The notes: generated by a model not told the origin, from the sequence alone. Shown: positions 36,716 through 63,479, counted from the stretch's first letter. The stretch: DNA of 64,000 bases from an uncultured Phycisphaerales bacterium (GCA_965369385.1 CBDUQP010000001.1:4628-68627); one strand, 5' to 3'. Numbers and translations are program-made.

Positions 36716-38155
36716 ATGATATTCCGCCAAACGTCGCGCCGATTCGTTCTAGTTGCTCTTGTAGCCCTTTGTGTTTTCCTGCCTGCCTGCCTGCCTGCAC
36801 CCCAGCCGCAGCCGCAGGCCAAATACATATTCTACGTAATCGGCGACGGCATGGGCCCAAGCCAGGTGGAAGCGGCTGAGCGTTTCATACAGGCACGCCC
36901 CGAAATGAGCGGCCGCGACGACTACGTGTATCCAAAACTGGCGATGAACCTGCTGCCGCACTCCGGCACGTGCACTACACACTCAAACAACAGTGCCGTA
37001 ACCGACTCAGCAGCTGCCGGTACCGCGCTTGCCTGCGGAGTGAAGACCGACGGAGGCGTAATGGCCATGAGGCCGGACCGAAAAACCCCCGTGCCGTCAA
37101 TTGCTCACGTCCTGAAGAAGAACGGCTATCGAATCGGCATAATCTCGACAGCCGAAATTGATCACGCCACCCCCGGCGTTTTCTATGCTCACGAGCCAAG
37201 CCGCGGCAATTACTACGAAATCGCCACAACAATCGGCAAGACGGGCTTTGAATACTTCGCGGGCGTCGGCTGCGAAAGCGCGTTACCACACCGCCTGAAA
37301 GGCCGCCCCAGCCCGTTTGAAGTCATCCGCGCCGACGGCTACACCGTCTGCCGCACTATGGATGAGCTTCGCAAAGTGCAGACAGGCAACCGTCGCGTGG
37401 CATGCGCACTGAACGTTCCCTGGGAGATCGACCGCAAGGCGAACGACCCCCGACTCGTTCACATGGTGCGCGAAGGCATTCGCCTGCTGGGCACCGACAA
37501 AAACTTCTTCATGATGATCGAGGGCGGCAGGATAGACTGGTCATGCCACGAGAATGACGGAGCGTCGACCGTTCTTGAAACAATCGCCATGGACGAAGTG
37601 ATCCAGGAACTGATCACCTTCTATATGAAGCACCCCACCGAAACGCTGATCGTGGTGACTGCCGATCACGAGACGGGCGGGATGCAGCTGGCTGGCGACA
37701 AGCACGCCGAGGCTCGCCGGATATTGCCGCGTCAGAAGATACTGGCTGAACACACAGCCCCGATACTCAAGAAGCTTCGAGCTAAGAAACTGCCTGCGGA
37801 CAAGGCAATCGTTGAACTCGATAAGATCTTCGGTTTCGGCAAGCTCACGCCCGAAGAGCACAAACTGCTCGCCGACACCTGGACAGCCACGCTCTCAGGC
37901 GACCCGAAGACAAAGAGCAAATTCAAGAGCATGTACGGCCGTTACGATCCGGTCGAAATCCTCTGCACGCGATTCATGAACAGGAAGGCGGGAATCGCCT
38001 GGCGAACCTTCGGCCACAGCGCCACGCCGGTTCCCGTCAGAGCAGTCGGCGTTGGCGCCAAGGCCTTCGCGGGCAGAACCGACAACACCGACCTGCCCCG
38101 CCTGATCCTGAAAGCCGCCAACATAAGCGAAGCCAACCTGGCAAAACGTAAGTAG
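36716..38155 (+). CDS. Alkaline phosphatase (PhoA family), lipoprotein
   Basis: Signal/lipobox VALCVFLPACL. Metal-site motif YVIGDGMG. Active-site serine motif TDSAAAGTALACG. IDHATPG and VTADHETGG motifs. Confidence 0.85.
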   Translation: MIFRQTSRRFVLVALVALCVFLPACLPAPQPQPQAKYIFYVIGDGMGPSQVEAAERFIQARPEMSGRDDYVYPKLAMNLLPHSGTCTTHSNNSAVTDSAAAGTALACGVKTDGGVMAMRPDRKTPVPSIAHVLKKNGYRIGIISTAEIDHATPGVFYAHEPSRGNYYEIATTIGKTGFEYFAGVGCESALPHRLKGRPSPFEVIRADGYTVCRTMDELRKVQTGNRRVACALNVPWEIDRKANDPRLVHMVREGIRLLGTDKNFFMMIEGGRIDWSCHENDGASTVLETIAMDEVIQELITFYMKHPTETLIVVTADHETGGMQLAGDKHAEARRILPRQKILAEHTAPILKKLRAKKLPADKAIVELDKIFGFGKLTPEEHKLLADTWTATLSGDPKTKSKFKSMYGRYDPVEILCTRFMNRKAGIAWRTFGHSATPVPVRAVGVGAKAFAGRTDNTDLPRLILKAANISEANLAKRK

Positions 38156-38172
38156 GCTGAATGCACAGTTGA

Positions 38173-38580
38173 AGCGAGAATTGGGACTGTCCCGTTGTCG
38201 GGCCTGCCCGCCGTGGCGGGGACTGTCCCCAATGGCACTGCCATCTGTTTTGGTTGTTTTTGGTCGTCCGGGCCGAAGGTCCGATGGGCAGTAAGCCGGG
38301 GTGTGACCGACCAACGGGAGGGAACCCCCGGAATAGATCCCCCAAAACTTCAGAACCCCGATAGGGGTGGCCAGAGAAGCTTAACAGCGAGTTGGATGCC
38401 TGATAACTGGGCAACTCTTGTGCCAATTATTCCTGTCAATTCGCAAGTCAGCATCTCCCCCCCGGCCCTTCGGGACGGGGAGTATAGAGATCTGTATCCG
38501 GGGGCTGCACCGCGACTTACGTCGCGGCTAACCCCCGGCGTCGAAGATCCCGATACACATCGGGGCCCATCGGACCTTCG
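38173..38580 (+). repeat. Copy A of a modular hairpin-rich intergenic repeat family (about 410 nt, contains internal inverted modules)
   Basis: Shares with copy B the 5' module GGGACTGTCCCCAATGGCACTGCC, a G/T-rich tract GGTTGTTTTTGGTCG, and the 3' block from GGGCAACTCTTGTGCC to CCCATCGGACCTTCGGCCC (about 130 nt, near-identical). Also carries the reverse-complement module CGGGCCGAAGGTCCGATGGGCAG at about 38262. Confidence 0.8.
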
Positions 38581-38838
38581 GCCCTGACGACAGAAACTAC
38601 GGCAGCCACGCTCAACGAACGCCTTCAGGATTTCTGCCGGAAACCTAGCTAAACGCATTCGATCTTAATACGGCCTCTTTAGGCATGGCACTGGTTACAG
38701 GCCGGACACTCATCACGATTAGGGCTCCCTCACCCGCACACCGCCGGCGAGAGACTTTCTTTTATGGAAACCGCATGGTCGATGGGTTAATCTGAAGTCT
38801 TCTGAAAAGGGATCAGCCGCAGAAAGGAAGATGGCAAC

Positions 38839-40413
38839 ATGGGAGATAAACCACGTAAGAAACGCAAGTGGCTCAGGCGGATTGTTATCGCGATTGTCGT
38901 GCTGACGATTATCCTCGGCAGCGTGTGGGGATACTGGGCATACCAGTGCGCCTGCGCCGAAGCCGAAATCCAGGCATACCTCGACGAATGCCGCAAAGCA
39001 GGCCTCCCAGTTGACGATGATGACTTTCAGGCTACACCAATGCCCGATGAGGAGAACCTTGCTGTCATCTTCACCAATGCGGGCAAGAGCATCCCGACCA
39101 GCAGAAAGCAAAGGAATCTCCTGTTCCAATGGCGAAGAAGAGGGGTCGCCGAATACCTCGCTGTCTACCAGGCGTTAATCGCCGCCAATTCCAAAACGTT
39201 TGACATTCTCGCCAAATCAGAGGGATGCAGCGGCGTTGACTGGGGCTTCCAGATGCCACGCGAGCGGGAGGACAACCAAATGCCGGGGCGTCTGGCGATG
39301 AGGCTCGGAAGATTCCTTGGCGTGTCGGCGATATGCCACCATGCAAAAGGCAATGACGCCAGAGCCGTGGAGAGCCTGCATTATTCGCTCTCTCTTGCTG
39401 ACGCAGTTCGCCAATACCCGTCAACCGTCACATCGCACCTCGCCTACGCGATTGAGGAAATGATGTGTCGCGCCATCCAGCACATTATGGCAGACCTTAA
39501 TGTGGGACAATCAACGCGAACCGAAAAGTCTCAGCCTGCCCCCAAAGCCGCAGTCAAAAGGCTGATAGCAAATCTACTGGTCGATCAAGATATAAGGCGA
39601 TGCTACGCCCGCACATTACACGTCGAACGTATGTGGCAATTGGGCATGCTGCGTCACTTCTATGAGAATCTTGATGAACTTTCAGATGCTTATCGGCACA
39701 CAGGCTTCTTGCAATCTTCTCCAAAGACCTGGTGGACAAAGCTATTGGCGTTGGTCGGAAACGAACGCCCTTCATCCGGATATCTGGCTAGCCTGTGGTT
39801 CAAACCGGAACAATCGCGGGCTATGCTCAAGCTAATGAAGCGCACAGACTTGCATGCAGAGGCATTGAGCCAGCCTAACTGGCAACTGGCCTGCGCTCAT
39901 GTGCCTGAGTTCTCGTATTCCACCCCATCGGGAGATGATATCAAACGGAGAGGTATCAGCATAATGATGTCGGCGTATGCAGTACGACCAGATGACTTGC
40001 GGTTTGTATTTAGGACCATTGCACAGCGTCGCCTGACCGCTACTGCACTGGCAGTTCGGCTTTATGAGATTGACCATGGCAAACGCCCGGCGAAGCTGGA
40101 GCTGCTGGTCCCCAAATACCTGCCCGCAGTGCCCGACGACCCGTTCGCTCCCGTCGGAACGCCGCTGCAATACCGCCCCAACGCAAAGCATCCCATGCTT
40201 TACAGCCTCGGGCCGAACACCAAAGATGATGCCGGAGCGATGAGGCCAAAGGGCAAATCATGGGATGACGGCCCGTTCGACATCTGCGTATTCCTTGACG
40301 GATGGGATCCAAGAGAAGACATCCCTCTTGATCCCACAACCACTCAACCGGCTCAACAGTCCGGGCCATCATTCACGGGCATGCCGCCTGCTCCTGGCTC
40401 CACGCCCAAATAG
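38839..40413 (+). CDS. Hypothetical N-terminally membrane-anchored protein (524 aa), flanked by repeat copies A and B
   Basis: Basic N-terminus plus a single TM (KRKWLRRIVIAIVVLTIILGSVWGYWAY). The remainder is soluble with no recognisable motif. AGGAAG RBS before the ATG. Confidence 0.45.
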   Translation: MGDKPRKKRKWLRRIVIAIVVLTIILGSVWGYWAYQCACAEAEIQAYLDECRKAGLPVDDDDFQATPMPDEENLAVIFTNAGKSIPTSRKQRNLLFQWRRRGVAEYLAVYQALIAANSKTFDILAKSEGCSGVDWGFQMPREREDNQMPGRLAMRLGRFLGVSAICHHAKGNDARAVESLHYSLSLADAVRQYPSTVTSHLAYAIEEMMCRAIQHIMADLNVGQSTRTEKSQPAPKAAVKRLIANLLVDQDIRRCYARTLHVERMWQLGMLRHFYENLDELSDAYRHTGFLQSSPKTWWTKLLALVGNERPSSGYLASLWFKPEQSRAMLKLMKRTDLHAEALSQPNWQLACAHVPEFSYSTPSGDDIKRRGISIMMSAYAVRPDDLRFVFRTIAQRRLTATALAVRLYEIDHGKRPAKLELLVPKYLPAVPDDPFAPVGTPLQYRPNAKHPMLYSLGPNTKDDAGAMRPKGKSWDDGPFDICVFLDGWDPREDIPLDPTTTQPAQQSGPSFTGMPPAPGSTPK

Positions 40414-40430
40414 TGCATCAAACGCAAAAA

Positions 40431-40859
40431 CGGGACTGGCTCCAATGGCACTGCCGTCTGGTTTGGTTGTTTAGTCGTTTGGTTGTTTGGTCGTTTGGTT
40501 TAACCCCAACGGGGTGGCAAGCAGTTAGCCGGGGTTGAGCGAAGCGAGCCCCCGGAATAGAGCTCAAAAAACATCAGAACCCCGAAGGGGCCTGCCCGCC
40601 GGATGAGGAGGGTGGCAAGAGAAGTGTTTGCGTCGCATTGAGGTTCGAATCGGGCAACTCTTGTGCCAATTATTCGTGTCAATTCGCAAGTCAGCATCTC
40701 CCCCCGGCCCTTCGGGACGGGGAGTATAGAGATCTGTATCCGGGGGCTGCACCGCGACTTACGTCGCGGCTGACCCCCGGCTAACTGCCCATCGGACCTT
40801 CGGCCCGAACAACACAAAACGGCAAGAACAGACGGCAATGCCATTGATAGCAGTCCCCG
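40431..40859 (+). repeat. Copy B of the repeat family, complete, with about 29-nt imperfect terminal inverted repeats (MITE-like)
   Basis: Left end GGGACTGGCTCCAATGGCACTGCCGTCTG. Right end CAGACGGCAATGCCATTGATAGCAGTCCCC, its imperfect reverse complement. Internal (GGTTTGGTTGTTT)n tract and its complement near the right end. The 3' block is about 97% identical to copy A. Confidence 0.8.
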
Positions 40860-40944
40860 TTTTGCCCAAAAGTTTGTCGAGGGCTATTGACGCATCGGTG
40901 GTGCATCTGTATAGTATTTCGCTCCGCCGATTGGCGGGGATTAT

Positions 40945-41018
40945 GGTGGCTATAGCTCAGTTGGTAGAGCACCGCGTTGTGGTCGCGGGGGTCGCGGGTT
41001 CAAGCCCCGTTAGCCACC
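40945..41018 (+). tRNA. tRNA-His (anticodon GUG)
   Basis: Cloverleaf read by eye. G-1 plus acceptor GUGGCUA/UAGCCAC, discriminator C. D-arm GCUC-AGUUGGUA-GAGC. Anticodon stem CCGCG/CGCGG with loop UUGUGGU. T-arm GCGGG-UUCAAGC-CCCGU. No encoded CCA. Confidence 0.85.
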
Positions 41019-41023
41019 CTGAA

Positions 41024-41058
41024 GGGCCTGGAAGCGAGAGTTTTCAGGCCCTTTCTTT
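41024..41058 (+). terminator. Rho-independent terminator after tRNA-His, overlapping the convergent pflA stop
   Basis: GGGCCUG-(13 nt loop)-CAGGCCC followed by UUUCUUU. Confidence 0.6.
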
Positions 41059-41778
41059 ATGCGCAAGTAACAGCGACTCAAGAAGTTGCTGAAGCTCGGT
41101 CATCCTATCCGAATCAGCCGCCCGAACATCTGCCAGAGGATATTCACGCCCCAACTGCTCCCATTTGCCCCTCGCCATCGCGTGGTAAGCCAGCAGTTCG
41201 GCCTTGGCCAGGGTGCCCGCACCGGCCAGGAGTCCTGCCAGCATGCGGATATCAGCTTCATTATCATTCAGGCCGGGAACTATCACCTGACGCACCCAAA
41301 GCGGGATTCCCCGTCCGCACACTACCGCCATAAACTCCAGCGCCGTCGACAACTCCCCGCCCGACAACTCCTTGTAACGCTGCGGATCGGCGTGTTTTAT
41401 GTCCAGAATCACCAAACGGGTATAGTCCAGCACCCGCTGAACGTCGGCGTCCAAACGATAGCCAGCAGTATCCACTGCTGTGTGAATGCCCTCGGCCTGA
41501 CAGAGTCTCAGCACATCGGCTGCGAATTGCGCCTGCATCAGCGGCTCGCCGCCAGACAGCGTCACGCCGCCCTTTTCGCCGAAATACCTGCGATACTTCA
41601 TCACGCGACTGAGCACATCGGCTGCCGTCATCTCCTTGCCGCCTCGCGGATCCCATGTGTCGGGATTGTGACAGTACTGGCACCTCAGCGGGCAACCCTG
41701 TAGGAAAACCACGCACCGCAGGCCTGGCCCGTCAAGGGCACCAAGCGTCTCCACAGAATGCACGCGGCCGGTGGTCAT
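41044..41778 (-). CDS. pflA: Pyruvate formate-lyase activating enzyme (radical SAM)
   Basis: CxxxCxxC radical-SAM cluster motif CPLRCQYCHNPDTW. Conserved GGVTLSGGEP. Sits directly downstream of pflB on the same strand. Confidence 0.9.
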   Translation of the reverse strand: MTTGRVHSVETLGALDGPGLRCVVFLQGCPLRCQYCHNPDTWDPRGGKEMTAADVLSRVMKYRRYFGEKGGVTLSGGEPLMQAQFAADVLRLCQAEGIHTAVDTAGYRLDADVQRVLDYTRLVILDIKHADPQRYKELSGGELSTALEFMAVVCGRGIPLWVRQVIVPGLNDNEADIRMLAGLLAGAGTLAKAELLAYHAMARGKWEQLGREYPLADVRAADSDRMTELQQLLESLLLAHKERA

Positions 41779-41789
41779 GTCATTTCCTA

Positions 41790-42035
41790 ATTACTGGGCG
41801 ACACTTGAGGCAACTGTTCGTGTTAATCCGCAGGCACACATCTCCTCCTGCCCCTTCGGGGCGGGACTTTCTGGGGGCGTATTTGTCCGGGGGCTGCGCC
41901 GCGATAAACCCCGCGGCTTACCCCCGGCTAACTGCCCATCGGACCTTCGGCCCGAACGACAACAACCGGCAAACAAGAGACAACAACAACTGCGATGACA
42001 ACAACAACGAGGACACTGAATGCGATTGCCCTGTC
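41790..42035 (+). repeat. Copy C of the repeat family (3' half only, diverged)
   Basis: Contains the UUCG hairpin (CCUCCUGCCCCUUCGGGGCGGGA), the CCGGGGGCUGCGCCGCGAUAAACCCCGCGGCUUACCCCCGG hairpin, then CTAACTGCCCATCGGACCTTCGGCCCGAAC and an (ACAACAAC)n tract. Stem sequences differ from copies A and B but keep their pairing. Confidence 0.7.
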
Positions 42036-42037
42036 CC

Positions 42038-44269
42038 TTACACCTGCGAGTGGAAGGTCCTGGAAATTACTTCTTCCTGCTGCTCGCGGTTGAGCTTGTG
42101 GAAGTTCACCGCGTATCCGGAAACGCGAATCGTCAAATTAGGATACTTCTCCGGATTCGCCATCGCGTCGACCAGTAACTCGCGGTCGACAACGTTGATA
42201 TTCACGTGATGCCCGCCCTGGGCAAAGTATCCGTCAAGCACACCTACCAAATTTCCGCGCTGCTCGGGCAGTGCCTTGCCGAGCGTCGCCGGCGTAATAC
42301 TGAACGTACATGATATCCCGTCACGGCATGCATCGTAGGGTATCTTGGCGACCGAATTCAGCGACGCCAGCACACCGTGGCAGTCTCGCCCGTGCATGGG
42401 GTTGGCGCCGGGTGCAAAAGGCTGACCGTATTTCCTACCGTCCGGCGTTGAACCAGTCTTCTTTCCGTAAACCACGTTCGAAGTAATCGTAAGTATCGAA
42501 AGCGTGTGCTCGGCGTTTCGATAGGCGGGCGTCTTCTTTAACGATGCAAGGAAGTCTTCAACAAGAGTCGCAGCGATAAGGTCAACGTCGTCCTCATCGT
42601 TACCGAACGTCGGAAACTCGCCTGCGATTTCGAATTCCTTCACCAGTCCCGATTCGTCCTTCACGGGCATGACACTGGCATATTTGATCGCGCTGAACGA
42701 ATCGGCCACCACCGAAAGCCCCGCGATTCCAAACGCCATGAACCTGTCAACCTGCGTATCGTGCAGGCCCATCTCCAGCTTCTCGTAGGCGTAACGGTCG
42801 TGCATGAAGTGGATGATATTCATCGCGTTGACATACACCTTGCACAGCCAGTCGCGATAGAAATCAAACCGCCTCGACACTTCATCATAATCCAGCGGGC
42901 CATCGCCAATAGGCTCCATCTGGGGGCCGATTTGCTGACCAGTCAACTCGTCCCTACCGCCATTTATCGCCATCAGCAGTGTCTTGGGCAGATTACATCT
43001 CGCGCCGAAGAACTGCATCTGCTTACCGAGAGTCATCGCAGATACGCAGCACGCTATACCGTAATCGTCGCCATACACCGGCCTCATCAAATCGTCATTC
43101 TCGTACTGGATGGACGCGGTATCGATAGACACCTTCGCACAGTAACTCTTGAACGCATCGCTGAGGCGTTCGGACCAGAGCACGGTCAGATTCGGTTCCG
43201 GGTTGGGCCCGAGGTTATATAGCGTGTGAAGCATTCGGAAGGATGTCCTGGTAACGAGCGGCCGCGAGTCTTCGCCCATCCCGCCTACCGACTCGGTAAT
43301 CCACGTGGGGTCACCTGCGAAAAGTTCGTTATATTCCGGCGTGCGAAGCTGGCGAGCCATTCGCAGCTTCATCACGAAATCGTCGATGATTTCCTGCACG
43401 CCGGATTCATCAAGCGTGCCCTCAGCGAGATCTCGCTGAAAGAAAATATCCAGGAACGTGCTGACCCGCCCGAGCGACATCGCGGCCCCGTTCTGTTCCT
43501 TGATCGCACCGAGATAGGCAAAGTACACCCACTGCACAGCCTCGCGTGCATTGCGGGCAGGTGCGGAAATATCGATACCGTAAATCTCGGCCATCTGATT
43601 AAGCATTCGCAGGAAGTTAAGCTGCTTTGTGATCTCTTCCAGCAGGCGAATGTTCTCTTCGGACATATCCTGTAGGCCAAGTTCGGCGTGATCGTTCTCT
43701 TTGCACTCAATAATGCGATCTACGCCGTAGAGGGCAACTCGGCGGTAGTCACCGATAATTCGGCCTCGTCCGTAGGAATCGGGCAGGCCGGTTATCACGC
43801 CGGATTTGCGGGCCCGCCTTATCTCCTCGGTGTAAGCCCGGAAGACGCCGTCGTTGTGTGTGCTTCGATAGGCGAAGATGCCCTCGATCTTATCGTCAAC
43901 CTTGTAGCCGTATGCCTCGCACGCCCTGCGGGCCAGCCGCATCCCGCCAAATGGGTTGAGACTGCGTTTGAGGGGGCTATCGGTCTGGAGGCCGACAATT
44001 ATCTCGCGATCCTTGTCAAGATACCCCGGTTCGTAGGTGAGCAGTGACGATATGTGCTCGGTGTCTATAGACAGCACACCGCCACGCTCACGTTCGAGCT
44101 GCTCAAGGGCGGCGAGTTTGCCCATGAGCCCTCGCGTGCGGTCGGTGGGACCGGCGAGGAAAGACTCATCGCCATCGTAAGGTGTGTAGTTGTTCTGGAT
44201 GAAGTCGCGAACGTCAATCTGACGCTGCCACGTTCCATCGACAAAGTTTCGCCAGGCATCGTTTACCAT
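42038..44269 (-). CDS. pflB: Formate C-acetyltransferase (pyruvate formate-lyase)
   Basis: Glycyl-radical motif RVSGYAV near the C-terminus. Active-site region with adjacent cysteines (GIACCVSA). The N-terminus [42 protein letters not shown] aligns with E. coli PflB residues 1-50. Start moved from 44353 to ATG 44269. Confidence 0.9.
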
Positions 44270-44487
44270 TGCTGAATCTCCAAAATATGGGGAAATTGGA
44301 AAACTCACTGCAACAGCCGCCCGGAAATGAAAAACGCCCGGACATACCATCACATGCCCAGGCGGTCGGCAAAACTCTCTAATTACCTCGATCCCTTGTG
44401 GTTATGCCCACAATAAATCCGCCAGTCTCAAGGTAAGCTTTGTTCGTACTGTATTATAGGCACCCCCGCAGCAGCGTTCAAGACCCA

Positions 44488-44562
44488 TTAAACTAGGGAC
44501 GGTGCCCTATTTAATTCCAATTCAGGTTATTCCTATTTAAATAAGGCACCGTCCCTAGTTTA
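44488..44562. promoter_or_regulatory. 25-bp near-perfect inverted repeat with about 23-nt spacer, between the membrane-protein gene stop and the pflB upstream region
   Basis: TAAACTAGGGACGGTGCCCTATTTAA ...23 nt... TTAAATAAGGCACCGTCCCTAGTTTA, with one mismatch. No U-tract follows on either strand. Confidence 0.5.
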
Positions 44563-44572
44563 AGGATGCGGA

Positions 44573-49800: not shown

Positions 49801-50480
49801 GGTGTTTGTTTCTGTTGGTTTTATCTTGGTTTCTATGTGCGCCGTTGCCGAGTTTTTTGCTGTTGGCGTTTTCGGGCCGAAGGTCCGAGGGGATATTAGC
49901 CGGGGGTAAGGCTCGACGTAAGTCGTGCCGCAGCCCCCGGATATACTCTCTGTAATCCCCGCCCCGAAGGCGGCGGGAGGTATGCTCCTTTGCGAATTGC
50001 AGAACCGGGGACCGTCCCAATCCTGTCCGGCATGCGATTTGTACAAGGTTGCGGGTGGCGAGTGCGGGTGAGGATTGACCGGTGAGCGGATGGGCTCCGG
50101 CCCGAAGGGCCGGCAAGAACTTAGACGGAGGCATACACGTCACGACGAAGCCGAAGGGGAAGACGGAAGCCTCCGGACAAGGCGTGCAAGAATAGCCAAG
50201 CCCCAACGGGGCGATACAAGGGTAATCCGAAATGGCCGTGTTCTTCTGAGACCGTGAATTGCTGTCTGTCCCAGGGCCTACGCGTGCACGCTGCGGATTA
50301 CCAGACAAATACGTATCGCCCTTTCAGGACTCTGTTTCAACGTGGCCGCTGGATCGGAGGTTGTTTCAATATTGCCTCCGCCTAAGATCTGGCGAGGCCT
50401 TCGGCCTCTAAAAACGGATGCGGCTGCAATCCCCATGCCGGACAGGATTGGGACGGTCCCCAACGCCGGGACAGTCCCAG
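49801..50480 (-). repeat. Copy D of the repeat family (reverse orientation, composite: 3' block plus a TIR-bounded segment of about 400 nt)
   Basis: Region 49870-50010 is the reverse complement of the shared 3' block (..GGGCCGAAGGTCCGAGG..CCGGGGGTAAGGCTCGACGTAAGTCGTGCCGCAGCCCCCGG..CCCGCCCCGAAGGCGGCGGGAGG..TTGCGAATT). GGGGACCGTCCCAATCCTGTCCGGCATGCG at about 50006 is matched inverted by CGCATGCCGGACAGGATTGGGACGGTCCCC at about 50432. A G/T-rich tract lies at 49801-49835. Confidence 0.7.
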
Positions 50481-50504
50481 TTTTCGCTCAGGCATTAATC
50501 GCAG

Positions 50505-56614: not shown

Positions 56615-57008
56615 ATATCTTTCCTTCACCTCTTCAACAACGATTCGGCGATGCTGCAGGGCGTCACAAACTGCCCTCGCATCGTCCGGAATCACAAAGC
56701 AAGTCAGCCATTATCGCCAGAGCGAATCGAATTACCAGTATTGCGTATGCCCGCACACAGAGCAGGTGAGCCCCGATGTGCATCGGGATCTTCGACGCCG
56801 GAGGCGGGCAGGTGAAACAACAAGGGCGAACAATCACCTGCGAGACTGATTTCAAATAGGCTCGCTCACCTGCGGTCTCCTGGCCACATGTCCAGCGAAA
56901 GATGCGATGTAATTTCGCTCCTGATCAACTCGTTTTATTACGTTTTGAGCACAAAACGGGGGAAATAGCTGAATAATCGTAACTTCAGAAGAATATGCCA
57001 TATTTGGG

Positions 57009-57037
57009 TTGCCTCGTAGCCTTCACCCCTATATATT
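57009..57037 (+). promoter_or_regulatory. Putative sigma70-type promoter driving the riboswitch-nrdDG transcript
   Basis: TTGCCT -35 and TATATT -10 with a 17-nt spacer, about 30 nt upstream of the riboswitch P1. Confidence 0.45.
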
Positions 57038-57064
57038 GTATGTGTTGCTGGTGTCCTGAGTGAT

Positions 57065-57295
57065 CAGGATGGCAAGAGGGAACCCGGTGAGAGTCCGGGA
57101 CTGCCCCGCAGCGGTAATCGGGAACGAACCCCGCGTTCGAGCACTTTCCGGGATTTTTCGCCAGTTGTTCTGAGGCTTGCTGAATGTTCAGCAGTAGTCA
57201 GGCCCTTGGCGATCCGGATGGGAAGCGGCGGGAAGTAGACGCGACGATGATGTCGCACGCCCGAGAGTCCGAAGACCTGCCAGCGACCTGTGCAA
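57065..57295 (+). promoter_or_regulatory. Cobalamin (B12) riboswitch in the nrdD leader
   Basis: Core AGGGAACCCGGUGAGAGUCCGGGACUGCCCCGCAGCGGUAA matches the conserved cobalamin-riboswitch core (E. coli btuB: AGGGAAUCCGGUGCGAAUCCGGAGCUGACGCGCAGCGGUAA). Downstream GGGAAG...GAGAGUCCGAAGACCUGCCAGCG matches the B12 box (btuB: GCCCGAAGACCUGCCGGCC). P1 pairs UGGCA near 57070 with UGCCA near 57287. Confidence 0.8.
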
Positions 57296-57692
57296 ACGCA
57301 CGGTTATCGACCCGAGCCTCCGAGGGGAGACGGGTTGAAGCGAAAAGGCACTACGCAGTGGCGACGAGACGATAGGTACAAGAAAGTCTGGACCTGAAGT
57401 TGCAGTTAGACGACAGGTACACGGAAATTCTGATCTAAAACGTCCCAGGCCGCACCTGTATGGCTTTTCACTTCTACCGACCCCTTTGGCAGGGTTCGCA
57501 GGCAACCGTGATAGTTTTTTGATGGTTGTCCGCCGCTTGAGGGGCGGAGGTTGAATCAGCGTTCGGCAGCACTGGCGACGGATGCCGGCTGCGGGATGTA
57601 CCCTCATTTCGTTGTTTGAAATTGTTTCAGTGTCGCCGGTCAAATGTTTTTTCGTGTCTTCGCATTTGTGCGCAGCATGAGACGTACTCAAG

Positions 57693-59801
57693 GTGAAAGG
57701 AATCGCCAGGATGATCGAATCGATTCGTAAGCGTGATGGAAGAGTTGTCCCATTCGAACCGGAACAGATCACTCGCGCGATCTACAAAGCTGCCGAATCC
57801 TGTGGCGGTAGTGACTACGACAAAGCCGAACAGCTCGCCAGGCAAGTTGCAGACCTGCTGTCCACCAAGCATCCGACCGATATGCCGGAAGTCGAAGAAG
57901 TTCAAGACGCCGTCGAAAAAATCCTCATCAAGAGTGGCCACGCACGCACCGCAAAGGCGTTCATTCTCTATCGCGAGAAACGCAAGAGCGCCCGTCACCA
58001 CAACGCACTGATCGGCGCCACGATCAACATGTTCTCCGACTACCTTGATGATCGTGACTGGAAGACGAAAGAAAACGCCAACCAGCAGAAGTCGATCAAC
58101 GGGCTGAACAACTACGTCCGCGAGTTCTTCACCAAAAATTACTGGCTGCACGAGGTGTTCCCCGAAGAGGTCCGCAGGGCTCACCAGTCCGGCCGCCTGC
58201 ACATTCACGATCTCGGCTTCCTCGGTCCATATTGTGCCGGATGGGATCTCAGGCAACTGCTGATGCTCGGTTTCGGTGGCGTTCCGGGCAAGGTGGAATC
58301 CAAGCCCGCCAAGCATCTGCGGTCTTTCCTGGGGCAGATCGTGAATTCCACTTTCACCACTCAGGGCGAGTGCGCCGGAGCCCAGGCATGGAGCAGTTTT
58401 GATACATACTGCGCCCCGTTCATCAGACGCGACAACATGGACTACGAACAGGTGAAGCAGTGCCTGCAAGAGTTCGTCTTCAATATCAACGTACCCACGC
58501 GAGTCGGCTTCCAATGCCCATTCTCGAATCTCACGTTCGACCTTACCGTACCGTCCACTCTAAAAGACCAGGCCGTGATCAATGGCGGCCAGATCATCGA
58601 CGCAAAATACGGTGACTTCCAGGAAGAGATGGATATCTTTAATCGCGCGTTCTGCGATACGATGATGGAAGGTGACGCCAAGGGGCGAGTGTTTACCTTC
58701 CCGATCCCCACGATCAATATAACCAAGGATTTCGACTGGAATTCGCCGGCGTTTGAGTCGTTCATGCAGATCACCGCAAAGTACGGCGTGCCCTACTTCG
58801 CAAACTACGTGAACTCAGACCTGTCGCCCGAAGATGCAGTCTCCATGTGCTGCCGCCTGCGTATAGACACCAGCGTACTCCGCAAACGCGGCGGCGGGCT
58901 TTTCGGCAGCAACCCGCTTACCGGTTCTGTCGGCGTGGTAACGGTGAACCTGCCGCGAATCGGCTACAAGGCCACCACCGAAACCGAGTTCCGCGAGATG
59001 CTCGCCAACGAAATCCGCATCGCCCGCGATTCGCTGGAAATCAAACGCAAGCTGATCGAGAAACAGACCGAAGCCGGCCTGTATCCATATTCCGCACACT
59101 TCCTGCAGACAGTCAAACAACGCACGGGCGCATACTGGCATAATCACTTCAGCACAATCGGCATTGTCGGCATGAACGAAGCCCTGCTGAACTTCATGGG
59201 CGTTGGCATCGCAGAAGAAAAGGGCAGTCAATTCGCTATTGAGCTGATGAACTTCATGCGAGACCAACTGCAACGCATACAGGAAGATACCGGGCACGTC
59301 TATAATCTGGAAGCCACTCCCGCAGAGGGAACTGCACACCGCCTCGCGCGGCTTGATCTGGAGCACTACCCGGACATCATCACTGCCGGCGACGACACGC
59401 CCTACTACACCAACTCCACACAGTTACCCGTGGGCCAGACAGACGACATCTTCGAAGCGGTCGAACTACAAGATGAACTGCAATCGCTCTACACCGGCGG
59501 AACCGTGCTGCATCTTTACCTCGGCGAAGCGATAGAGGATCCACAACTGTGCAAACGGCTGATCAGAAAAATATTCGCAAACAACAAACTGCCCTATATC
59601 TCGATCACGCCCACGTTCAGCATCTGCCACGATCACGGGTATATCAGCGGAGAGTTTTTCGCCTGCCCACAGTGCGATAAGGCCACAGAGGTCTACTCCA
59701 GAGTCACCGGTTACCTGCGGCCGGTACAAAACTACAACGATGGCAAACGCGCCGAGTATTTCGACCGCCGCAAGTACACCATGCCGGAGGTGATGGCATG
59801 A
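57693..59801 (+). CDS. nrdD: Anaerobic ribonucleoside-triphosphate reductase (class III)
   Basis: N-terminal ATP-cone (IRKRDGRVVPFEPEQITRAIYKAAE). C-terminal Zn ribbon CPQCD plus earlier Cys. Glycyl-radical motif SRVTGYLRP. The AGGTGA RBS sits 6 nt before the third ATG (57711), so the start may be 57711; 702 aa from the track start. Confidence 0.9.
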   Translation: MKGIARMIESIRKRDGRVVPFEPEQITRAIYKAAESCGGSDYDKAEQLARQVADLLSTKHPTDMPEVEEVQDAVEKILIKSGHARTAKAFILYREKRKSARHHNALIGATINMFSDYLDDRDWKTKENANQQKSINGLNNYVREFFTKNYWLHEVFPEEVRRAHQSGRLHIHDLGFLGPYCAGWDLRQLLMLGFGGVPGKVESKPAKHLRSFLGQIVNSTFTTQGECAGAQAWSSFDTYCAPFIRRDNMDYEQVKQCLQEFVFNINVPTRVGFQCPFSNLTFDLTVPSTLKDQAVINGGQIIDAKYGDFQEEMDIFNRAFCDTMMEGDAKGRVFTFPIPTINITKDFDWNSPAFESFMQITAKYGVPYFANYVNSDLSPEDAVSMCCRLRIDTSVLRKRGGGLFGSNPLTGSVGVVTVNLPRIGYKATTETEFREMLANEIRIARDSLEIKRKLIEKQTEAGLYPYSAHFLQTVKQRTGAYWHNHFSTIGIVGMNEALLNFMGVGIAEEKGSQFAIELMNFMRDQLQRIQEDTGHVYNLEATPAEGTAHRLARLDLEHYPDIITAGDDTPYYTNSTQLPVGQTDDIFEAVELQDELQSLYTGGTVLHLYLGEAIEDPQLCKRLIRKIFANNKLPYISITPTFSICHDHGYISGEFFACPQCDKATEVYSRVTGYLRPVQNYNDGKRAEYFDRRKYTMPEVMA

Positions 59802-60562
59802 AGTTCTCCGGATTGCAAAAATGCAGCTTCGTGGACTTCCCCGGAAAGATCGCTGCCGTGATCTTCACACAGGGATGCAACTTCAACTGCACCTACTGCC
59901 ACAATCGCTGCACTATAGACAATAGCAGCGAGAGCCTGCTCGATGGAATGGAAGTGCTGGCGTTCCTGGCCAAACGACGGGGCATGCTGGATGGCGTCGT
60001 GATTTCCGGCGGCGAACCGACACTGCAAACAGGGCTGACAGATTTTATCCGCACCGTTAGACTCATGGGCTTCGCAGTAAAACTCGACACCAACGGCAGC
60101 CGGCCGCGAGTTCTTGAGAGCCTGCTTGACGCCAAGCTGCTGGACTTCGTGGCGATGGACGTTAAGGCCCCCATGCACACGTATGAACAGATAACCAGAC
60201 GCCCGACAGACATGGCCGCCATTCGCCAGAGCATTGATTTGCTTCTCAGAGGCGATGTGGATTACGAGTTCCGCACCACGCTGGCACCGCAACTGTCCGC
60301 AGCCGACGTCCTGATGATAGCCACGCGAATCCACGGCGCAAAACGCTACGCAATCCAGCAATACCGTCCGGTTGAAGATGCAGATGTCACGCTTAGCATA
60401 GATGACCTGAAGCCCCACAGTGATGAATACGTGCTTGGCGTGGCGGACCTGGTGCGCCCGATGGTATCAACGTTCGAAGTTCGCGGCGTATCGCAAGCGG
60501 CACGCAAGGCGGCCGAGTTCGCACCAGTCACAGGCATCCTGCAAGAAGCTGTCTCAGCGTAA
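59798..60562 (+). CDS. nrdG: Anaerobic ribonucleotide reductase activating protein (radical SAM)
   Basis: Cluster motif GCNFNCTYCHN, GVVISGGEPT. Overlaps the nrdD stop by 4 nt. Confidence 0.9.
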   Translation: MKFSGLQKCSFVDFPGKIAAVIFTQGCNFNCTYCHNRCTIDNSSESLLDGMEVLAFLAKRRGMLDGVVISGGEPTLQTGLTDFIRTVRLMGFAVKLDTNGSRPRVLESLLDAKLLDFVAMDVKAPMHTYEQITRRPTDMAAIRQSIDLLLRGDVDYEFRTTLAPQLSAADVLMIATRIHGAKRYAIQQYRPVEDADVTLSIDDLKPHSDEYVLGVADLVRPMVSTFEVRGVSQAARKAAEFAPVTGILQEAVSA

Positions 60563-63175: not shown

Positions 63176-63250
63176 GTTCGGGCCAACGGTCTGGCAGGTG
63201 CTTAGCCGGAGTGTAAGCCGCATATCGCGGCGCAGCCCCCGGCACCCCAA
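63176..63250 (-). repeat. Copy E of the repeat family (short 3'-block fragment, reverse orientation) inside the low-GC island
   Basis: GTTCGGGCCAACGGTCTGGCAGGTGCTTAGCCGGAGTGTAAGCCGCATATCGCGGCGCAGCCCCCGG aligns with the reverse complement of copy B 40744-40810 (GTTCGGGCCGAAGGTCCGATGGGCAGTTAGCCGGGGGTCAGCCGCGACGTAAGTCGCGGTGCAGCCCCCGG). Confidence 0.6.
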
Positions 63251-63479
63251 ACCAGCCCGCCGCGACGGATCAGGTGAGAAGATGATCGGCCATCATCCGT
63301 GGCACAGCTTGACCACTGCTGCCACAGACTATGCGGGTGGCAATCGAGTTACCATCCCAAGTAGACAGCAATATGCCAATAGCTGCAGCAGTTATGTGTC
63401 ATAGAATCCAACAGGGTCTTTCACTAGCATCATCGTCCCACTCTTCTCTTTGGAGTTACGGGAACGTCGCGTCGCGATA

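Follow-up and report, generated by a model that had tools for sequence, protein, structure and literature searches.

A 64,000-nt stretch of DNA from an uncultured Phycisphaerales bacterium (GCA_965369385.1 CBDUQP010000001.1:4628-68627; hereafter the window, numbered 5' to 3' from its first letter) contains copies of a modular, hairpin-rich repeat, several of which lie between positions 38173 and 42035. What are these repeats? The initial annotation of the sequence offered three answers, namely a non-autonomous mobile element, a structured non-coding RNA (ncRNA) family, or an element resembling repetitive extragenic palindromic (REP) sequences and bacterial interspersed mosaic elements (BIMEs). 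Our analysis favours the first and third of these over the second. With a probability of about 80%, we consider the window repeats to be non-autonomous DNA elements similar to REPINs (REP doublets forming hairpins) and miniature inverted-repeat transposable elements (MITEs), which correspond to the ends of a family of elements carrying a Y1 gene and are probably mobilised in trans. The units are DNA elements rather than RNA genes, as seen from their membership of this family, the bracketing of Y1 open reading frames (ORFs), strand-symmetric covariation and their absence from a syntenic relative.

Nine copies of a three-hairpin unit in the window

Self-BLAST of the intergenic regions and a repeat search recovered all five regions first described, that is A (38.2-38.6 kb), B (40.4-40.9 kb), C (41.8-42.0 kb), D (49.8-50.0 kb) and E (63.15-63.28 kb), with similarity spanning both orientations. 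By using R1, a covariance model built from 96 non-window units with zero window sequence in its training, and with filters off, we found nine copies of a unit of about 110 nt (23-60 bits), all of them intergenic, while the opposite strand at the same sites scored at most 11 bits. The repeats are thus real, and the earlier count of at least five copies becomes nine units. Each unit consists, in order, of a first hairpin (H1), a spacer of about 20 nt, a nested second hairpin (H2), the motif GGCTAA, a linker and a third hairpin (H3). The H2 pattern (CCGGGGGCTGC-N16-28-CYCCGGC) was matched five times in the window, where the expected number is 0.00.

The three-hairpin block had been recognized from the start, but two aspects of the layout had not. 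First, A and B are inverted doublets, since in the alignment their left halves are diverged reverse-complement copies of one unit. Second, region D holds three units: two of them, newly recognized at 50096-50222 (minus) and 50308-50410 (plus), together form a third doublet. Also, H3 is present, but the form proposed for it (GGACC-UUC-GGCC) has an A.C mismatch as written in the plus orientation. The window therefore contains three gene-less inverted doublets (A, B and D2/D3) of 390-455 nt without ORF, each made of a minus copy followed by a plus copy with 75-94 nt between them, and three single units (C, D and E). The features are as follows.

38173-38202, unstranded: extra palindrome module AGCGAGAATTGGGACTGTCCCGTTGTCGGG, outside doublet A
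38217-38604, unstranded: doublet A, with minus unit 38267-38378 (34.7 bits), a 75-nt spacer and plus unit 38454-38586 (R1 match 38454-38545, 32.7 bits)
38219-38266: left terminal module of doublet A, GGGACTGTCCCCAATGGCACTGCC plus a GT-rich tract
38540-38564, plus strand: nested 25-nt hairpin GTCGAAGATCCCGATACACATCGGG, inside the plus unit of A
40424-40865, unstranded: doublet B, the most complete element, with minus unit 40500-40601 (41.5 bits), a 94-nt spacer and plus unit 40696-40809 (54.8 bits)
41796-42035, plus strand: single unit C, with leader 41796-41839, core 41840-41956 (R1 60.1 bits) and an A/C-rich tail
49801-49984, minus strand: single unit D, with core 49871-49984 (R1 55.4 bits) and GT-rich tail 49801-49870
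50007-50461, unstranded: doublet D2/D3, with minus unit 50096-50222 (40.8 bits), an 85-nt spacer and plus unit 50308-50410 (27.6 bits)
63177-63273, minus strand: single decayed unit E (R1 22.9 bits, E = 3e-4)

The copies differ from one another by 20-35% (BLAST and alignment), and are therefore old. We could confirm that the left 38 kb contains no R1 match at E<0.01, as the initial annotation had it, but the apparent clustering on the right is statistically uncompelling because only about 4-5 intergenic gaps longer than 200 nt exist there.

In related genomes the units bracket a Y1 gene

The H2 pattern followed by CTAA was searched for in 185,579 species genomes, and loci of about 8 kb around the matches were analyzed. 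This yielded 88 stretches, mostly from metagenome-assembled genomes (MAGs) of Verrucomicrobiota, but also from Phycisphaerae, other Planctomycetota, Acidobacteriota and one Sumerlaeales MAG; a few were chance matches (Pontibacter, Amycolatopsis, Burkholderiaceae). R1 detected 188 units in the 88 stretches, mostly as minus-then-plus doublets, and a single Verrucomicrobial MAG accounted for 73 units in 31 loci, nearly every one of which carries a minus-then-plus pair. In the shared architecture, TTTCTYCGA is followed by H1 (TGCCCC-loop-GGGGCA) and, after about 20 nt of spacer, by H2 (an inner hairpin between CCGGGGGCTGC and CTTGCCCCCGG), CTAATTTCCTGCGG and H3 (YGTCCC-TCCG-GGGAC). The family is frequent in poorly studied phyla, namely Verrucomicrobiota including relatives of Akkermansia, Planctomycetota and Acidobacteriota.

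Beside the units of one locus (L015), a 148-aa ORF matches Pfam Y1_Tnp at 9e-23, and by tblastn a Y1 gene adjoins units in loci from 7 MAGs belonging to three phyla. To avoid the bias of a repeat-first ascertainment, the test was also run in reverse, starting from the Y1 protein. First, a unit lies right beside the ORF in 7 out of 7 loci found through Y1 homologues (50-55% identical; Gemmataceae, Chthoniobacteraceae, Acidobacteria and others). Second, all 80 metagenomic loci picked solely by Y1 protein similarity contain at least one unit. Third, of 74 assessable loci, 65 have a minus unit within 200 nt upstream of the Y1 ORF; for a plus unit downstream the figure is likewise 65 of 74, and the complete order unit(-), ORF, unit(+) is present in 55 of 68 assessable metagenomic loci, with median gaps of 9 and 7 nt. 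Therefore, the full-length element is unit(-), ORF, unit(+), with H1 pointing inward and H3 outward. In this protein-ascertained set H2 is mostly CCGGTGG...CCACCGG, so the genome scan sampled a minority variant only. One of the loci (P0096) is syntenic in three assemblies with an identical protein, which probably represent one species.

The dominant form is the gene-less doublet, in which the spacer is 46-115 nt and the geometry is that of the full-length element. In one locus (L016) the doublet spacer keeps the first 20 Y1 codons; this form is apparently an intermediate between full-length and gene-less elements, as its sequence is what would be expected of an internal-deletion derivative. 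The window copies belong to the same family: positions 40502-40590 are 78% identical (E = 6e-11) to units flanking the Y1 gene in locus L152. By tblastn, the doublet spacers in the window show no similarity to Y1, and we rejected the idea that they are relics of the gene. Among the analyzed loci, we found one Y1 gene per MAG, including the MAG with 73 units.

Other arrangements were seen as well. Tandem direct arrays of units occur at L016 748-1160 and L070 7258-7928 (Acidobacteriota MAG JBDTOZ01). Verrucomicrobial doublets are asymmetric beyond H3, with GAGCnAAGCGTTGGCGACAATTCT on one side and AACCGGGCGTCCC on the other (L002, L010, L011, L021, L034, L054, L071 and others); the mobile unit is therefore longer than two cores, with distinct left and right ends.

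The Y1 protein carries the motif Y(I/V)xxQxxHH (Y-x3-Q-x2-HH), in which Y114, Q118, H121 and H122 are invariant in 12 sequences, together with WQ and DH(V/L)H motifs and conserved C-terminal residues E130, L135 and D143 in the same 12 sequences. Its nearest solved structures in the PDB are ISDra2 and IS608 TnpA (E about 1e-7). Subclass 1.2 of the TnpA-Y1 proteins has been described as having Y-x3-Q-x2-HH, a conserved C-terminal extension, low copy number and no insertion sequence (IS) properties (Quentin et al. 2018, PMC6006769). By its motifs the gene would belong to this subclass, which it resembles as well in its C-terminal extension, its small size (148 aa) and the lack of any sign of high copy number. 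The accessible part of Table S1 of that study gives no structures for subclass 1.2 (PMC6006769), whereas the genes studied here are bracketed by a conserved three-hairpin repeat and belong to other phyla.

These data bear on whether an ordinary, active insertion sequence of the IS200/IS605 type would account for the units as its ends, the window copies being recent MITE derivatives without a REP-like, long-term association with the host. The protein does pass the cut-off of NCBIfam transpos_IS200 (59-70 bits, cut-off 55) and fails that of REP_Tyr_transpos (RayT; 16-26 bits, cut-off 80), and the doublets look like internal-deletion derivatives, with L016 and its 20 codons as an example. However, IS200/IS605 ends are not inverted repeats, whereas the ends described here are inverted copies of about 110 nt. 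In addition, a protein of the subclass 1.2 type would be at odds with an active IS, as would the presence of 73 units with one Y1 gene in a single MAG. Finally, the window copies are too far apart in sequence to be recent. Taking these observations together, an ordinary active IS is unlikely.

Covariation points to DNA palindromes rather than to a structured RNA

The initial annotation had noted that stem changes between copies were compensatory, and proposed that the kept pairing reflects selection on structure. Both statements were borne out. In the window-only alignment, 89% of cells pair, 9 of the 20 pairs show double changes, and there are 11 double-change cells against 3.5 +/- 1.4 in shuffles. 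We then used an alignment (A5) of 120 units from protein-ascertained loci, in which 20 pairs were tested: 96.6% of cells form standard pairs, changes on both sides are seen in 18 of the 20 pairs, and double-change cells number 354 against 94 +/- 13 in shuffles, while pairing dropped to 30-51% in slid-partner controls. The GGCTAA following H2 is at least 90% conserved in the same alignment. Folded as single-stranded DNA, doublet B forms one long hairpin (-110 kcal/mol, z = -7.8) and unit C forms three hairpins (z = -3.5).

Such compensatory changes keeping three hairpins are also what would lead one to see in the units the genes, or the cis-acting domains, of a structured ncRNA (a small RNA or leader family) whose hairpins are kept for RNA function. 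In addition, UUCG-like loops cap H1 and H3 in the plus orientation, and of the five plus-type units that are best conserved, all but C (that is, A-right, B-right, D and E) point to the start of the next gene. The composition of the pairs says otherwise. A helix formed by one RNA strand should tolerate G.U far more than A.C. Yet among 2231 cells of A5 we counted 2135 Watson-Crick pairs, 21 G.T and 22 A.C, so that G.U-type pairs, at about 1% of cells, are no commoner than A.C. This points to DNA palindromes that pair on both strands, not to a strand-specific RNA. The symmetry would fit a need set by the inverted layout around the Y1 gene, for an enzyme acting on one strand.

Several other observations argue against an RNA. 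First, the units come as inverted pairs and take either strand with respect to the genes, with C running antisense to the pfl operon and the left halves of A and B facing the ends of genes. Second, Y1 ORFs are bracketed by the units, at gaps of 7-9 nt, in 55 of 68 loci. Third, promoter-like and terminator-like sites are not enriched. Fourth, Rfam, proposed earlier as a check for a known family, gave no match to the window or to 12 related loci at the gathering threshold, and a permissive search of 38100-42100 (E<=10) brought up nothing relevant. Fifth, a syntenic relative lacks the units. After its identical match, the next homologues of the window leucyl-tRNA synthetase (LeuRS) are 73% identical and come from Phycisphaerales and Phycisphaerae MAGs, which assigns the window to Phycisphaerae; in the relative whose LeuRS is 73% identical and whose leuS-aminotransferase order is the same, we found zero units in 22.8 kb, including the 950 nt upstream of leuS. 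This argues against a conserved cis-regulatory role and for a lineage-specific insertion. Together, these data make the ncRNA explanation very unlikely, although the unit resembles a structured RNA enough to mislead ncRNA screens.

A model for the window copies

We propose that a Y1 enzyme encoded elsewhere in the source genome would recognize the hairpins in single-stranded DNA, for example in the lagging-strand template, and would cut and rejoin the DNA beside them, thereby copying or moving the doublets. In the window doublets, 75-94 nt separate the two ends, in place of the roughly 460 nt with the ORF. Mobilisation in trans is suggested here by analogy with IS200/IS605 TnpA and with E. coli TnpA-REP. 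In this scheme GGCTAA is a candidate cleavage site, and the binding of a hairpin as well as any effect on host transcripts are likewise presumed.

The window copies have the features of MITEs, being small and free of ORFs, with terminal inverted repeats (52 nt at 75% in B, 35 nt at 91% in D2/D3) and core units that match the ends of Y1 elements. A match to a known IS end had been taken in advance as the mark of a plain MITE with incidental hairpins. The elements are indeed MITE-like and do match such ends, but their hairpins are not incidental, as they form the conserved, covarying core of the ends. By eye, we saw no direct repeat of at least 4 nt at the borders of B or D2/D3, the exact borders being uncertain. 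Transposition by Y1 enzymes is not expected to make target-site duplications.

Three observations weigh against this model. First, tblastn found no Y1 gene in the window, so that the cognate enzyme of the window copies can only be presumed. Second, the window-type H2+H3 pattern had 0 matches in the metagenome scan. Third, the extra terminal modules of the window copies (GT-rich tracts and GGGACNGTCCC palindromes) are missing from the units that flank Y1 genes elsewhere. In line with the initial annotation, Pfam also revealed no transposase or integrase among 37 larger ORFs of the window, which are housekeeping or of unknown function.

Accessory modules of the window copies

Besides the conserved core, the units of the window carry additions of their own: a leader, GT- or AC-rich tails and terminal GGGACNGTCCC palindromes. 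The lineage-specific leader and tail modules had no match in 176 loci (L001-L176). Doublet A, whose right terminal module is absent or decayed, aligns with B at 72.5% over 426 nt (BLAST), and the inverted repeats I1/I8 support A. In A-right the GTCGAAGATCCCGATACACATCGGG hairpin stands where the alignment places TAACT after H2 in other copies. A 38-nt segment nested in A-right (38532-38569), with the hairpin CCCGAT-ACAC-ATCGGG, recurs inverted at 56767-56804 upstream of lgt with 92% complementarity (I6). Doublet B also holds a (GGTTGTTT)n tract and an A/C-rich tail; its terminal inverted repeats, first put at about 29 nt, were measured by BLAST as 52 nt at 75% (40424-40475 / 40814-40865). Unit D aligns with B at 79.5% over 161 nt (BLAST). 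The 35-nt inverted repeat that brackets D2/D3 (50007-50041 / 50427-50461, I7) includes GGGGACCGTCCC, and the outer stem of H2 in this doublet is a compensated variant (CCGGAGG...CCUCCG). In the decayed unit E, H1 is degenerate; H2 and H3 are retained, with the exact H2 pattern at 63205-63242.

The GGGACNGTCCC palindromes number 8 in the window (at most one mismatch) against 2.1 expected. They include sites at 38183, 38219, 50008, 50450 and 50468 and are found mostly at the outer ends of doublets; they may represent a second, simpler REP-like family in the source genome. The AGCGAGAATTGGGACTGTCCCGTTGTCGGG module outside A has an inverted counterpart outside D2/D3, at 50459-50488 (I12, 30 nt, 83%). 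Between the riboswitch of pflB and the next gene lies a 27-nt inverted repeat (44488-44563, TTAAACTAGGGACGGTGCCCTATTTAA / TTAAATAAGGCACCGTCCCTAGTTTAA, 96% complementary, arms 22 nt apart), whose GGGACGGTGCC core resembles the terminal palindromes of the doublets.

On the minus strand, the leaders of A-right and B-right (38409-38428 and 40652-40671) contain AATTGGCACAAGAGTTGCCC, which fits the sigma-54-type TGGCAC-N5-TTGC perfectly and is directed into the spacer of the doublet. We discarded this motif as a feature of the family, as it is degenerate in C and missing from other units and genomes.

Neighbouring genes and possible use by the host

Doublet B ends 86 nt before tRNA-His (40946-41019), an adjacency that had been reported with a distance of 85 nt. 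A sigma-70-like promoter (40887-40915, plus strand, TTGACG-17-TATAGT) is found between the end of B and the tRNA gene; it is likely the tRNA promoter, with B just upstream of it. Between doublets A and B lies a 524-aa gene (38839-40413, plus strand) whose product has an N-terminal membrane helix and shows no Pfam domain. On visual inspection, the C-terminus of the product (…PDDPFAPVGTPLQYRP…LYSLGPNTKDDAG) is reminiscent of the motif of the type II secretion pseudopilin GspG. Doublet A, this gene and doublet B could form a composite transposon. Unit D lies upstream of leuS.

In agreement with the first description, Pfam places unit C between pflB (PFL-like and Gly_radical; 42038-44353, minus strand) and pflA (radical SAM), antisense to the operon, and the tail of C ends in GCCCTGTCCC, which abuts the pflB stop codon. 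Directly upstream of pflB is a ZMP/ZTP riboswitch (pfl motif; 44349-44439, minus strand, 62.8 bits). Further right, a cobalamin riboswitch (57032-57298, plus strand, 95.9 bits) lies upstream of nrdD, which encodes anaerobic ribonucleotide reductase (57693-59801) and is followed by the gene for its radical-SAM activase (59798-60562).

The position of C within one operon raises the question of whether it is chiefly their use by the host that maintains the units, be it as transcript-end stabilisers, as terminators or as sites for nucleoid or regulatory proteins, roles that have been proposed for REPs. Stable hairpins between pflB and pflA could decouple the levels of the two parts of the mRNA, and a small hairpin followed by a T-rich tract, read inwards, is present at each doublet end (38232-38244, plus; 40844-40832, minus). 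However, the enrichment of terminator-like sites (8 against 4.2 +/- 2.2 expected) is not significant, and no host protein or phenotype is tied to the units. Moreover, host use leaves the bracketing of Y1 genes unexplained, and is compatible with, and secondary to, an origin as mobile elements. As the main reason for their persistence, we regard it as highly improbable.

Relation to known Y1-associated repeats

A close parallel to our preferred reading, that of DNA elements forming the ends of a Y1-gene family, is found in the REP/REPIN-RAYT (TnpA-REP) systems or "REPtrons" (Nunvar 2010, Bertels & Rainey 2011, Ton-Hoang 2012; PMC3116915, PMC8266576). As in these systems, the repeats are palindromic, intergenic and present in many copies, inverted doublets that fold into one long hairpin dominate, the repeats far outnumber the genes, and a Y1/HuH gene is bracketed by inverted repeat copies, here in related genomes. 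The differences are as clear. A REP is a single hairpin of 20-40 nt, whereas the unit described here has about 110 nt, three hairpins and conserved linkers. A 5' GTAG or CGTC tag is lacking, and the conserved unpaired motif is GGCTAA, on the 3' side of H2. The protein is class-1-like (Y-x3-Q-x2-HH) where RAYTs are class-2 (Y-x3-NP), and the hosts belong to the PVC group and Acidobacteriota, whereas REP/RAYT are known chiefly from Proteobacteria.

A separate case of a REPtron came up in some Phycisphaerae/Planctomycetota LeuRS genes, which are interrupted in frame, where the editing domain begins, by about 240 aa (L178 3422-4150, P0197; also P0206 and P0222). The inserted segment codes for a class-2 RAYT-like domain (NHVH, YICDNP), and the palindrome CACAGGCGTCTCGCCTGTG lies on either side of it, twice in direct orientation upstream and once inverted downstream. 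This is a REPtron inside an essential gene; the window LeuRS is without the insertion.

Long flanking inverted repeats or "atypical secondary structures" have been described for TIRYT genes ("TIRtron"; Di Nocera et al. 2013, PMC3733652) and for class 3 Y1 genes (PMC6006769), and these repeats can form moderately abundant families organized as dimers, including in Planctomycetes and Acidobacteria (PMC3733652, PMC6006769). Our family shares with them a Y1 gene flanked by inverted repeats, the dimer organization and the phyla. In contrast, TIRYT proteins are mostly of subclass 2.1 with helix-turn-helix extensions and their repeats carry the motif GGGGWSAS, and class 3 has Y-x4-Q, W[TA], NHVH and repeats of the form CnGA-GCCGCGACCGTAAGGGAGCGG, where we found Y-x3-Q, WQ and another repeat. 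Two possible links were tried and rejected: of the terminal palindromes, GGGGWSAS fits only GGGGACAG at 38219-38230, and the CnGA foot of class 3 resembles the CCGA before H1, but the repeats of Table S1 differ and the protein motifs do not fit.

With IS200/IS605 and their derivatives (PATEs), the family has in common the Y1 transposase fold, end hairpins and gene-less derivatives. It differs from IS200/IS605, whose two ends are distinct from each other, in having ends that are inverted copies, much longer and triple-hairpinned, and it has no TnpB. BIMEs of E. coli and BOX elements of pneumococcus are modular too, with core hairpins, variable linker or tail modules and nested insertions; there is no sequence relationship, and BOX has no associated transposase.

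A full-text literature search, whose coverage is incomplete, found no published description of the three-hairpin unit. It is possible, and we put it forward only tentatively, that the unit and the subclass-1.2-like Y1 gene make up an undescribed, ancient partnership of the REPIN-RAYT type across the PVC superphylum and Acidobacteriota, whose recognition architecture, with three hairpins and GGCTAA per end read on both strands, would differ from those of all studied Y1 enzymes. In a bolder variant, the unit would act also as RNA, for example as partner or regulator of the Y1 protein. The family keeps the logic of REP/RAYT, with a bracketed Y1 gene and many gene-less doublets, but uses a long, triple-hairpin end with strong covariation. 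The Y1 subclass to which it is tied has been described as being without associated DNA structures (PMC6006769). The family thereby makes testable how a Y1 enzyme may read a compound signal in single-stranded DNA, whether an IS200 transposase was domesticated a second, independent time in subclass 1.2, and what influence such repeats have on the intergenic regions of these genomes.

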